A stretch of DNA of 64,000 nt from the NCBI RefSeq assembly GCF_053078305.1, contig NZ_CP166879.1, one strand, 5' to 3'. The position numbers were made by a program, and so were the translations under genes. This document shows positions 6,054 through 39,632 of the stretch, piece after piece (position 1 is the stretch's first letter; each line of letters begins with the position of its first letter). The notes beneath the pieces are model-generated. The model ran no database searches. It saw nothing but the letters and a program-made list of their open reading frames with translations, and was not told the DNA's origin.

Positions 6054-6476
6054 ATGCGTAATATTCAACAGGTTTTAGAGCGCTGGGGTGGCTGGGCAGC
6101 GAGTGAAGGTGGTAGCGTCTACTTTCCTCCTGTTGCAGCCGGGTTTAAGAATCTGCTACCCGCGACGCAGTCTGGAAGGCTGAAATGCAGTGACAATGAC
6201 GGTCTTATCATCAACTCCGCTATGAGCTGCCTGAAGAAAAAAGATCCGTATCTGTGCACGCTCCTTGAGTGGCATTACGTCCAGGCCATGCCCGTGCGGG
6301 CGATGGGTGAGAAGCTCGGCGTATCTCACACCCACGTTCTGAAGAGGCTTCAGGCGGCAGAGGGATTTATTGACGGTTGCTTAGCCATGCTGGATGTGGT
6401 GCTCGAAATGGATCAGTCGGTTCAGTCAAAGCCTCAGGCTATCAGGACTTTGCGTAGGAGCTGCTCGGCGGCATAA
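6054..6476 (+). CDS. Late-gene antiterminator, Q-like (putative)
   Basis: 140 aa; upstream of lysis cassette; resembles small Q-type antiterminators from recall. Confidence 0.45.
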   Translation: MRNIQQVLERWGGWAASEGGSVYFPPVAAGFKNLLPATQSGRLKCSDNDGLIINSAMSCLKKKDPYLCTLLEWHYVQAMPVRAMGEKLGVSHTHVLKRLQAAEGFIDGCLAMLDVVLEMDQSVQSKPQAIRTLRRSCSAA

Positions 6477-6507: not shown

Positions 6508-6684
6508 ATGGCTCTGATCAGCGTTCGCAACAGATTTGAAAGCTTCATGGAACAGAGGTACCCAGACCTGTCGTTGCAGGTCAAAGGTAATATTGGCGCA
6601 TCAATGAAGGCCCAACTTGGCATCGGATTGAACGAGAATTGTACAGTGAAGATGTTACTTACTGTGATTCAGCAGTTCAGTTGA
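6508..6684 (+). CDS. Small hypothetical protein (58 aa)
   Basis: Manual translation MALISVRNRFESFMEQRYPDL...; SD AAGGGA upstream; stop overlaps next start. Confidence 0.3.
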   Translation: MALISVRNRFESFMEQRYPDLSLQVKGNIGASMKAQLGIGLNENCTVKMLLTVIQQFS

Positions 6685-6848
6685 TGTGGACACTCTTTCA
6701 GGCAGGTGTTCTGGCCGAACGAAGAGCTACCAGCGTTACGCTTCCTGCGCTGAAGGCAAAGCCGGATAGCTTCTACGATGCGGGTTATAACGAAGGTATT
6801 CAGGACTGTCGTAAACATCTGACGGCATCAGGCATCAAGGTAAGATAA
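6684..6848 (+). CDS. Small hypothetical protein (54 aa), translationally coupled to upstream small ORF
   Basis: ATG at 6684 overlaps upstream TGA (TGATG); ORF track lists a longer form from 6639. Confidence 0.3.
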   Translation: MWTLFQAGVLAERRATSVTLPALKAKPDSFYDAGYNEGIQDCRKHLTASGIKVR

Positions 6849-6914
6849 AAAATAGTTGTGGAATTCCAAAAAGCCGATTAGCCTGATATCTGTTGAAAAC
6901 AGTTCATCACGAAG

Positions 6915-6940: not shown

Positions 6941-7167
6941 TTGCCCCATTCTGGGGAAAAGTTAATAAAACAGGGCTTTCGCTGCGAAAAAACGCTATGC
7001 AGTTTTTGCCCTTTTTTATGCACCTTTTATTCACTCGAATTTCGTCATTCTGGACCACTTAAGTTGATTAAATAGGCCTTTCATCGCAAATCTATTGCGA
7101 GCGGGGATCGTGTGGTTCCTATAACGTACATTATGTTAAATAACTTCCTTTTTTAACAAATTTAACA

Positions 7168-7193
7168 AGGTTCGCTATGGCGAACTTTTTTTT
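7168..7193 (+). terminator. Rho-independent terminator (GTTCGC-TATG-GCGAAC then T8); possible tR'-like terminator ahead of the lysis genes
   Basis: Perfect 6-bp stem and 8 T read directly; tR' role is inference by analogy with lambda. Confidence 0.55.
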
Positions 7194-7294
7194 GTATTCA
7201 GGGCCCACCGAAGGACGGCTCATAACCCAATCCTACGGGCGTATACGCAGGGCCCGCCTTTCAACAACACCCCGTAATGGCGGAGGTGGGAAGT

Positions 7295-7636
7295 ATGAAA
7301 ATGCACAATGCTCCTCATTCCTGGCCTGACTTACTGGAACTCTTACAAAGTTGGTGGCGTGGAGATACGCCGTTGGGCGCAGTGGTTATGTCAATTGTTA
7401 TGGCTGGCTTGCGCATTGCCTATTTTGGCGGTGGCGGCGGCTGGAAACGAAAAACGCTTGAGATTTTGCTCTGTGGTGCTCTGACGCTGACCTTTGCATC
7501 CGCTCTTGAGTATGTTGGATGGCCTAAATCTCTTTCTGTTGCCATTGGTGGTGGTGTTGGGCTGATCGGTGTCGATGCTATTCGTGGGGCTGCAATGCGA
7601 GTAATCGGTAACAAGTTTGGTGGCTCTAAGGAGTAG
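7295..7636 (+). CDS. Holin, class I (three predicted TM segments) with dual-start Met-Lys-Met motif
   Basis: ATG AAA ATG at 7295-7303 after SD GGAGGTGGG; hydrophobic segments; directly upstream of endolysin. Confidence 0.7.
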   Translation: MKMHNAPHSWPDLLELLQSWWRGDTPLGAVVMSIVMAGLRIAYFGGGGGWKRKTLEILLCGALTLTFASALEYVGWPKSLSVAIGGGVGLIGVDAIRGAAMRVIGNKFGGSKE

Positions 7637-7639
7637 TTC

Positions 7640-8116
7640 ATGCAGACACTAAATTCCCAACGTAAAGCTTTCCTGGATATGGTGGCATGGTCAGAAGGAA
7701 CGGATAACGGGCGACAACCGACACGTAATCACGGTTATGACGTTATCGTCGGAGGTGAGTTGTTCACTGATTACTCCGATCACCCTCGCAAACTTGTCAC
7801 GCTAAACCCGAAGCTTAAATCAACAGCCGCAGGCCGGTATCAGCTTCTTTCACGCTGGTGGGATGCCTACCGCAAGCAGCTTGGCCTGAAAGATTTTTCG
7901 CCAGAAAGTCAGGACGCTGTGGCGCTGCAGCAGATTAAAGAGCGTGGCGCTTTACCGATGATTGACCGTGGCGATATTCGTCAGGCAATCGACCGTTGCA
8001 GCAATATCTGGGCGTCGTTACCTGGTGCAGGTTACGGTCAGTATGAACATAAAATCGGTGACCTGATTTCCAGGTTTAAAGATGCTGGTGGGGTGGTAAA
8101 TGAAGCTGACTTATAA
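7640..8116 (+). CDS. R: Endolysin, lambda R-type lytic transglycosylase
   Basis: Near-identical to recalled lambda R N-terminus (QRKAFLDM.AWSEGTDNGRQ.TRNHGYDVIVGGELFTDYSDHPRKLVTLNPKLKST). Confidence 0.9.
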   Translation: MQTLNSQRKAFLDMVAWSEGTDNGRQPTRNHGYDVIVGGELFTDYSDHPRKLVTLNPKLKSTAAGRYQLLSRWWDAYRKQLGLKDFSPESQDAVALQQIKERGALPMIDRGDIRQAIDRCSNIWASLPGAGYGQYEHKIGDLISRFKDAGGVVNEADL

Positions 8117-8624
8117 GATTGTTATCGCGGCATTTTTCTTCTCTGCCTTTGGGGCGCTCGTCTGGTCTGCAAACCATTACCACAGCAAGTATCAGGCAGA
8201 AAAGTTGCGGGCTGATAAAGCGGAAGGTGAAGCTGAATATCAAGGGAAAGTGATAGCTAATCAGGCATTAAACTTCAATCGTTTTAACCAGATAGCAGAA
8301 AAAGCAAGCCGATTAAATTCTCTGGTCGACATCGGTCACGAGAAGACAGTCATCAAATACCGTGAGGTTCTGCTCCGTGAAAAGAACTGTGATTTCCCTG
8401 TTCCTGTTGATATTGCTGTCGGGGTGCTCAACTACGCGAACCGTTTACGCGCCAGCGCATTGCACGCCGATTCCGGGGACATTGACTCAGCCGGTGATCG
8501 TGCCACTACCACCAGAACGTTGACATATTGCCAGGCTGTTCTGTGGATTAACCCACTGTTGGCAGCCATCGAGAAGGCGAATAACCAGTTGGCTGGTGTC
8601 CGACAAATAGAACAGTCCCGGTAA
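8100..8624 (+). CDS. Rz-like i-spanin
   Basis: N-terminal TM segment; follows and overlaps endolysin; contains embedded +1-frame lipoprotein ORF. Confidence 0.65.
   Translation: MKLTYKIVIAAFFFSAFGALVWSANHYHSKYQAEKLRADKAEGEAEYQGKVIANQALNFNRFNQIAEKASRLNSLVDIGHEKTVIKYREVLLREKNCDFPVPVDIAVGVLNYANRLRASALHADSGDIDSAGDRATTTRTLTYCQAVLWINPLLAAIEKANNQLAGVRQIEQSR
8377..8523 (+). CDS. Rz1-like o-spanin lipoprotein embedded in the +1 frame of Rz
   Basis: Manual translation (GTG start assumed) KRTVISLFLLILLSGC... with lipobox LSGC and proline-rich tail PVIVPLPPER; start codon uncertain. Confidence 0.5.
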   Translation: MKRTVISLFLLILLSGCSTTRTVYAPAHCTPIPGTLTQPVIVPLPPER

Positions 8625-8685
8625 TAGCATTACAGAAGCTCTTCCAGGAGGGGCTTCGATAATGACCTGATAACTGGAAAATAAA

Positions 8686-9258
8686 ATGACTAAGAAGCTG
8701 AAAGCAAAACACGAGGTGTTTTGTCGCGAGTTTCTTGTCGATCTGAATGCTACACAAGCAGCTATTCGCGCAGGCTACGTCTCCAGGCGAGCACATGTTA
8801 CGGGGGCTGAACTATACGGTAAACCTGAGATACGCGCCCGTATTAACGAGCTAAAGCAGGAGCGTATTGATCAACTGGGCATTGATGCGAATTATGTGCT
8901 GATGCGACTGGTTGAGATCGACAGGCTCGATGTGGCTGACATCCTGGAGGACGATTTAAGTATTAAGCCTCTGTCTGCGTGGCCGGAATCGTGGCGTCGG
9001 TACCTGAGTGGATTTAACCTCGCTGAAATGTTTGAGGGGCGAGGAGATGACAGAGAAATGGTCGGGATCCTTAAAAAGATTAAGTGGCCTGATAAGGTTA
9101 AAAACCTTGAGTTGCTTGGGCGTCATGTTTCTGTTCAGGCGTTTAAAGACAACGTCAAAAATGAAGTGACTGGCGCTGATGGAGGACCCGTCAGAACAGA
9201 AATTACCAACTTAACGCCGGAGCAGGCTGCAGAAGCGTATAAAAAAATGATGGGCTAA
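8686..9258 (+). CDS. Terminase small subunit (P27-type)
   Basis: 190 aa; position before large terminase; family from recall. Confidence 0.75.
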
Positions 9259-39446: not shown

Positions 39447-39632
39447 AGTGGCTCATTCACCGACTTATGTCAGCCCCTTCGGGACGTGCTACATAAAATT
39501 CGAATGACGCACAACAAGGTGCCTGCCGTCCAACTTCTGATATCAGCGTAGCTATATCAACCATCGGGCGAAACGTCGAGTTAGGCACCGCCTTATTCCA
39601 TAACAAAGCCGGGTAATTCCCGGCTTTGTTGT
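39447..39632 (+). ncRNA. glmY: Small RNA GlmY
   Basis: Position between purL and glrK, sigma-54 promoter, terminal hairpin AAAGCCGGG / CCCGGCTTT plus U-run; sequence matches recall. Confidence 0.7.

Follow-up and report, generated by a model that had tools for sequence, protein, structure and literature searches.

A lambda-family class I holin gene with a probable holin/antiholin dual start in an Escherichia coli prophage

Does the holin gene of this Escherichia coli prophage give rise to one protein or to two? The question is raised by its first three codons. In the window, that is, the whole stretch of 64,000 nucleotides analysed here (contig NZ_CP166879.1 of NCBI RefSeq assembly GCF_053078305.1), the gene opens with ATG AAA ATG at positions 7295–7303 (+), in frame with a stop codon at 7634–7636. 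Direct reading of the open reading frame at 7295–7636 (+) gives 113 codons from the first ATG (ATG1) and 111 from the second (ATG3). The initial annotation had drawn attention to ATG AAA ATG as the start of a holin, and that arrangement is present as described.

Comparison with protein family profiles indicated that the gene (7295–7636, +) is a class I holin gene, S, of the phage-lambda family, with three predicted transmembrane domains (TMDs). The protein matched PF05106 (Phage_holin_3_1; phage holin family, lysis protein S) over profile positions 2–99 of 99 (E=1e-27; 96.9 bits against a cutoff of 23.8) and PHROG 126, “holin/anti-holin” (E=3e-39). It also matched the NCBIfam equivalog TIGR01594, holin_lambda, over positions 1–105 of 107, with a score of 135.8 bits (cutoff 55.05) that exceeds the 127.3 bits of lambda S itself. 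In a BLASTP comparison with lambda S (from J02459) the two proteins were 26% identical over 109 aligned columns (E=2e-6), and the alignment was full length and colinear from residue 1. Only eight columns were invariant in a multiple alignment that included lambda S, Met3 and the single Cys being among them. The holin call of the initial annotation is therefore borne out by all three profiles, but it was wrong at the family level in taking the protein to be otherwise unlike lambda S, given the PF05106 match, a TIGR01594 score above that of lambda S and the colinear full-length alignment.

The charge layout of the protein implies a three-TMD topology with the N-terminus out and the C-terminus in. 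Kyte-Doolittle peaks delimit three hydrophobic segments at approximately residues 27–44, 54–74 and 79–100. The N-tail is net negative (D, E, R and D counted from Met3, for a net charge of −2, with R22 as the first basic residue), loop 1 reads GGGGGWKRK, and the C-tail is net positive. By the positive-inside rule, an acidic N-tail together with a basic KRK loop 1 and a basic C-tail would produce the N-out/C-in arrangement, as in lambda S105, whose topology is three TMDs, N-out/C-in (PMC6116005). The first of the segments, TMD1, is weakly hydrophobic and carries a charged pair in mid-segment, R22/D24, where lambda has K17/E18. A separate 58-aa hydrophobic open reading frame lies in the +1 frame within the holin gene (7308–7484, +), beginning at the third ATG of ATGAAAATGCACAATG, and probably arises incidentally from the sequence that encodes the TMDs.

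The genes around the holin were those expected of a gene S, and their predicted identities place it at the head of a late lysis cassette (S, R, Rz/Rz1) that depends on Q, within an E. coli prophage. Upstream lies a Q-type late-gene antiterminator at 6054–6476 (+) (PF06530, Phage_antitermQ, E=5e-42; PHROG 79), which PGAP labels “antiterminator Q family protein” in a near-identical prophage. The interval between Q and the holin contains an intrinsic-terminator-like hairpin with a T-run at 7167–7198 (+), found by a consensus scan as a 9-pair stem with a 4-nt loop. It occupies a tR'-like position and would be expected to function as a terminator; the SfV record has a putative rho-independent terminator annotated at the equivalent place. 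Immediately downstream of the holin is a lambda-type, cytoplasmic endolysin R (7640–8116, +; PHROG 90), 88% identical to lambda R over 158 aa (E=3e-109). No export signal, SAR sequence or N-terminal hydrophobic segment was found in this endolysin, and a lambda-R-like endolysin without an export signal needs a large-hole holin. An Rz-like i-spanin follows at 8100–8624 (+) (PHROG 214, E=8e-58), and embedded in its +1 frame is an Rz1-like o-spanin at 8362–8523 (+) (PHROG 456, E=8.5e-7) with a lipobox-like LLSGC in its translation. The match of the Rz1-like frame to PF23793 (LysC) was weak, below the Pfam cutoff.

The gene has also been named in database records. Four induced E. coli prophages in GenBank (vB_EcoM-606R2, -689R2, -611R5 and -683R1; ON4705xx) are 99.3% identical to the window over 7000–8700, and their records already label the gene “holin/antiholin component S”. 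In E. coli 2011C-4251, PGAP calls it “phage holin, lambda family”. The coding sequence is begun at ATG1 both by PGAP and in the GenBank phage records. Some form of the holin gene was found in 1,234 of 5,426 complete E. coli genomes.

Several other features of the region were noted. Relative to the near-identical prophage of E. coli 2011C-4251, the window is one base short near 6624/6625 and has one additional T in the terminator T-run (~7186). The indel at ~6624 breaks a 113-aa hypothetical protein of PGAP (6508–6849) into open reading frames 6508–6684 and 6639–6848, which points to a pseudogene or, alternatively, to an error in sequencing. A direct repeat, CAGGGCCC(A/G)CC, lies downstream of the terminator and upstream of the holin SD hairpin, with copies at 7199–7209 and 7248–7258 (+) that are identical at 10 of 11 positions; both copies contain the palindrome GGGCCC, for which no function is suggested. 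A GlmY sRNA gene at 39447–39594 (+) (Rfam RF00128, 147 bits) indicates that the window passes from the prophage into the E. coli chromosome. No tRNA genes were found anywhere in the window.

Attention was then given to where translation of the holin would begin. Direct reading places a Shine-Dalgarno (SD) sequence, GGAGGTG, at 7282–7288 (+), −13 to −7 relative to ATG1, and (G)GAGGTG is kept in all relatives compared. The SD is followed by ATG1 (7295–7297, +) after 6 nt and by ATG3 (7301–7303, +) after 12 nt. ATG1 is the predicted start of a longer, antiholin-like product of 113 aa, and ATG3 the predicted start of a 111-aa effector holin. The AAA codon between them (7298–7300, +) encodes Lys2, which would add a positive charge to the N-terminus of the longer product only.

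The nine-nucleotide motif was rejected as evidence by itself. The window has six copies of ATGAARATG, every one on the + strand, where shuffled sequence would give 1.8, and the five other than the holin start (21787, 24119, 29190, 48847 and 59583, +) are internal or out of frame, none lying at a plausible gene start. The copy at the holin start is set apart from chance by its place, since it follows an SD and opens a holin gene, and by having been conserved while the nucleotides just before it diverge.

Another in-frame ATG lies further upstream, at 7277, and would yield a 119-aa protein beginning MAEVGSMKM. The open reading frame list extends to this codon, and some gene callers go further still in variants that lack the upstream stop (P0001). 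However, the codon is 5' of the SD, within the loop of the hairpin that contains the SD, and has no SD of its own. In relatives whose leaders differ, the codon is missing, and the residues upstream of ATG1 vary (L006, L047, L039). We rejected ATG 7277 as a start, and consider its use so improbable that it hardly enters into the choice.

Evidence on ATG1 was sought among relatives. Homologues were grouped into 120 clusters, 102 of them intact, and the start motif was scored at the homologous position in those 102. DNA of the distant relatives was obtained through exact-protein look-ups, as a scan of IMG/VR yielded only relatives at least 91% identical. An M-[K/R]-M start was present in 81 of the 102 intact clusters (79 MKM and two MRM), down to ~58% identity and across about 11 genera: Escherichia, Salmonella, Klebsiella, Citrobacter, Enterobacter, Pantoea, Erwinia, Serratia, Shimwellia, Izhakiella and Mixta. 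Codon 2 was AAA, AAG (in Klebsiella) or CGT, encoding Arg (in Serratia and Erwinia), while the 6–7 nt spacer and all sequence 5' of the SD varied freely. Codon 2 is translated only from ATG1, and its synonymous or charge-conserving changes thus argue for use of ATG1 and for a role of the basic residue.

The relatives also differed in the company that the holin keeps. The same holin subfamily occurs with three unrelated types of endolysin (L088–L106), indicative of modular shuffling of the lysis cassette: the lambda-R-like endolysin that is the partner here, a GH19 endolysin (PF00182) in Klebsiella, Pantoea, Salmonella and Shimwellia relatives, and a PF00959 lysozyme in Serratia, Enterobacter, Klebsiella and Mixta relatives. 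In three genera the holin is directly preceded by a hicA/hicB toxin-antitoxin pair encoded on the other strand (Erwinia, L094, 1–451; Shimwellia, L100, 1–415; Mixta, L106, 1–425).

Evidence on ATG3 came from natural alleles that lack ATG1. The alleles of phages SfV, SfII, SfIV and mEp460 share about 89% nucleotide and about 90% amino acid identity with the window gene and have a single ATG (MPHNPN...) at the Met3 position, with ATG1-Lys absent. In two further relatives (L061 and L062) the start reads ATA AAA ATG, ATG1 having mutated to ATA, and in two others (L053 and L060; TATGAAATG) the loss of one A shifts ATG1 out of frame; in all four the holin frame from ATG3 is intact. Met3 is thus a competent start from the same SD, because alleles without ATG1 but with intact holin frames begin there. 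These alleles bear on the possibility that ATG1 alone is used, giving a single 113-aa holin in which Met3 is merely a conserved internal residue. The better SD spacing of ATG1 (6 nt after GGUG; 12 nt in the case of ATG3) and the choice of the annotators to begin the coding sequence there would fit such a gene. Yet Met3 is alone among the N-terminal residues in being invariant throughout the subfamily and in lambda S, it is the sole start in the intact SfV/SfII-type, ATA-AAA-ATG and frameshift variants, and in lambda the Met1 form is the inhibitor and not the effector (PMC6116005). We regard exclusive use of ATG1 as improbable.

An additional feature was seen in the SfV-type alleles (SfV itself, L003, 972–982; L007; L071–L087), which have a further ATG, in another frame, that precedes the true start by 8 nt in the arrangement GAGGTGAGAG-ATG-ACGAA-ATG. 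Its spacing from the SD is better than that of the real start, and gene callers sometimes begin there (P0011, P0075; “MTKCLITQI...”). This codon could be a vestigial or decoy start.

The frequencies of the alleles affect how far the dual start can be called conserved. A count over complete E. coli genomes gave 383 with the dual-start 5' end, 265–375 with the SfV-type end and 603–659 with the SfII-type end, the latter two counts overlapping. Going by these counts, single-start alleles seem no rarer in E. coli than those with the dual start, which predominates in genera other than Escherichia. The suggestion in the initial annotation of conserved lysis-timing control therefore holds in part: the dual start is widespread across genera, but the SfV, SfII, SfIV and mEp460 alleles, apparently at least as frequent in E. 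coli, have a single start. SfV, SfII and SfIV are the nearest phages with this holin to have been characterised. The SfIV paper states that control of lysis timing in these single-start relatives is unknown. Overall, the distribution suggests that the antiholin start is widespread across genera yet repeatedly dispensable, consistent with the non-essential, fine-tuning role that it has in lambda.

The mRNA around the two starts was compared with that of lambda S, in which four elements of initiation have been described: an SD for Met1 (GGGGG, −12 to −7), an unusual SD for Met3 (UAAG, −6 to −3), an upstream stem-loop (−21 to −7) that gates the SD, and an intragenic stem-loop (+31 to +47) (bioRxiv 10.1101/2025.05.14.654169). 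In the window, a hairpin is predicted at 7268–7288 (+; −27 to −7), CACCCCGU-AAUG-GCGG(A)GGUG, the 3' arm of which is the SD, and it likely represents the counterpart of the lambda upstream (sdi) stem-loop. It folds at −11.9 kcal/mol, compared with −9.4 kcal/mol for the lambda stem-loop, and both stems end at −7. The hairpin accounts for 94% of the ensemble and was matched by 3 of 200 shuffles. The fold of the whole 110-nt initiation region was not significant (z=+0.67); only the local hairpin stands out. No stable or conserved lambda-like intragenic stem-loop emerged when +10 to +71 of the window gene and five relatives were searched (z 0.1 to 1.3), and the same search recovered that of lambda. 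The spacer before ATG1, where lambda has the UAAG that serves Met3, reads GGAAGU here and AGAGAYY in most relatives; it is purine-rich and has no clear anti-SD complementarity. Two of the four lambda elements, namely the SD for Met1 and the upstream stem-loop, thus have clear predicted counterparts in this gene.

The SD was again located within the 3' arm of a hairpin in 25 distinct leaders. Since the arms were out of register in a MAFFT alignment of the initiation regions, base pairs were tabulated instead by a strict SD-anchored rule, which favours the structure and misses hairpins with internal loops (Serratia, Erwinia and Pantoea). By this rule, 7–9 pairs were formed in 14 of 17 representative initiation regions, the sequences of the inner stems differing. 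There were compensatory flips at position 6 of the 3' arm (C-G nine times, G-C four times) and at position 7 (G-C eight times, C-G six times). When controls were folded with RNAfold, a median of 13% (0.135) of composition-preserving shuffles paired the SD equally well, a weak result because the leaders are C-rich. The strict local-hairpin rule was adopted in place of that control and was still modestly significant: the window hairpin has 8 pairs compared with 4.6 in shuffled controls (p=0.016), and the combined p across representatives, which are not independent sequences, was ~6e-4.

The hairpin and the alleles without ATG1 both bear on the converse possibility, that ATG3 alone is used and ATG1-AAA is an untranslated leader that resembles a start. 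Many close alleles do without ATG1, and the SD is held in part by the hairpin, an arrangement that works against Met1 in lambda (bioRxiv 10.1101/2025.05.14.654169). An untranslated leader, however, would not be expected to keep an ATG and a Lys/Arg codon in frame in 81 of 102 clusters and ~11 genera while the adjacent leader nucleotides vary; AAA/AAG synonymous changes and the charge-conserving CGT amid such a varying leader point to selection at the protein level. ATG1 is, moreover, optimally spaced from a strong SD. We consider sole use of ATG3 unlikely, if marginally less so than sole use of ATG1. That both starts are used is the best reading of these comparisons, and it is well supported, if not proved. 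The lambda-style dual-start motif proposed in the initial annotation has in this way gained comparative support: both Met codons and the basic residue are kept across genera, and an SD-occluding hairpin is in the position that it has in lambda. We found no experiments on the present allele or its subfamily in the literature that was searched.

If both starts are used, one mRNA would be translated in one frame into two proteins, a 111-aa effector holin from ATG3 (7301) and a 113-aa antiholin from ATG1 (7295) that carries the additional Met-Lys. In lambda, the positive charge of this extension blocks insertion of TMD1, and S107 remains inhibitory and dimerises with S105; loss of the proton-motive force allows TMD1 to insert, and the inhibitor becomes an effector (PMC6116005; PMC9636201). 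Lambda making only the holin lyses about 5 minutes earlier than lambda with both products, at 43.8 compared with 48.8 min (PMC7276437). By analogy with S107/S105, the extra N-terminal charge of the window protein would hinder passage of the acidic N-tail and the weak TMD1 across the energised membrane. The longer form would be held in an inhibitory two-TMD topology, paired with the holin, and triggering would occur a few minutes later. Upon membrane depolarisation the longer form would flip and join in hole formation, making lysis a sharper event. The split of initiations between ATG1 and ATG3 would probably be set by the hairpin at 7268–7288, in which the SD GGAGGUG is occluded and whose stem stops 6 nt short of ATG1, as does the lambda upstream stem-loop. 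The hairpin is, however, also present in single-start alleles, and its role may be no more than to restrain translation in general, with no part in apportioning initiations between two starts.

The acidic N-tail, the marginal TMD1 with its charged pair and the basic loop 1 correspond to what the lambda model requires, and it is on this basis that a 113-aa antiholin and a 111-aa holin are predicted. Two properties of the protein would instead suit a dual start in which the Met-Lys extension makes no antiholin and, for example, tunes expression level or stability. The N-tail is longer and more hydrophilic than that of lambda S, with about 24 residues before the hydrophobic core compared with about 8, so that the lambda topology-switch model need not transfer unchanged, and the identity to lambda S is only 26%. 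Against this, the K-to-R substitutions among relatives keep charge specifically, the TMD1 charged pair (R22/D24; K17/E18 in lambda) and the overall charge layout are conserved, and the same motif has antiholin behaviour in holins of class I (lambda) as well as of class II (phage 21) (PMC9636201). We think it quite unlikely that the extension lacks an antiholin role, more so than that only one of the two starts is used. Our preferred reading, that the 113-aa antiholin and the 111-aa holin are both made and act in the manner of lambda, has by analogy a probability that we place at roughly 80%. What was observed are the sequence features, the family of the protein, and the conservation of the two starts, the basic residue and the SD hairpin; we infer the use of both starts, their ratio, the topology switch and the effect on timing.

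These data indicate that the gene is a known kind of element from a known family that has already been annotated as a holin/antiholin. An appropriate label would be lambda-family class I holin, probable holin/antiholin dual start, with the coding sequence beginning at ATG1 (7295), the likely effector start at ATG3 (7301) and ATG 7277 left out of account. Beyond correct annotation the gene is of little importance. A more speculative thought, which we hold only tentatively and regard as doubtful, is that the subfamily represents a natural allelic series bearing on what antiholins are for. The E. coli prophages contain ~90%-identical genes with the same endolysin, spanins and SD hairpin in dual-start, ATG1-to-ATA, ATG1 out-of-frame and single-start alleles, and the SD-occluding hairpin is retained even in alleles that have lost the dual start. 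If these alleles differ in lysis time or in timing noise, the antiholin start would be a tuning knob that has been gained and lost repeatedly, and the SD hairpin would work independently of it. Such near-identical natural cassettes with and without the antiholin start would be ready material on the adaptive value of antiholins, a question that published work describes as open (PMC9636201; PMC7276437).

Comparison with known systems places the gene closest to its own allele in phages vB_EcoM-606R2, -689R2, -611R5 and -683R1, from which it has essentially no difference. The holins of SfV, SfII, SfIV and mEp460 (annotated “holin/anti-holin” or “class I holin”) resemble it in their R and Rz/Rz1 partners, SD and SD hairpin, and differ in having one ATG, at the Met3 position, without ATG1-Lys. 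With lambda S (S107/S105) it shares its family, the Met-Lys-Met start, the three TMDs in an N-out/C-in layout, the TMD1 charged pair, the single Cys, an SD at about −13 to −7 in a hairpin ending at −7, a following R endolysin and Rz/Rz1, and a Q antiterminator. It differs from lambda S in that the identity is only 26%, the N-tail is longer, Trp-rich and acidic (HNAPHSWPDLLELLQSWWRGDTP), loop 1 is the glycine-rich GGGGGWKRK, and the SD is the consensus GGAGGUG rather than GGGGG; in the window we detected no UAAG-like second SD and no +31 to +47 intragenic stem-loop, and the Q protein is of a different type (PF06530). The holin of phage 21 (S21-71 antiholin/S21-68 pinholin) belongs to an unrelated class II family with two TMDs, forms pinholes and is paired with a SAR endolysin, whereas the endolysin here is cytoplasmic and lambda-R-like. 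It nevertheless has, like the present gene, a dual start that adds a basic residue, and its antiholin is made from the same frame (PMC9636201).
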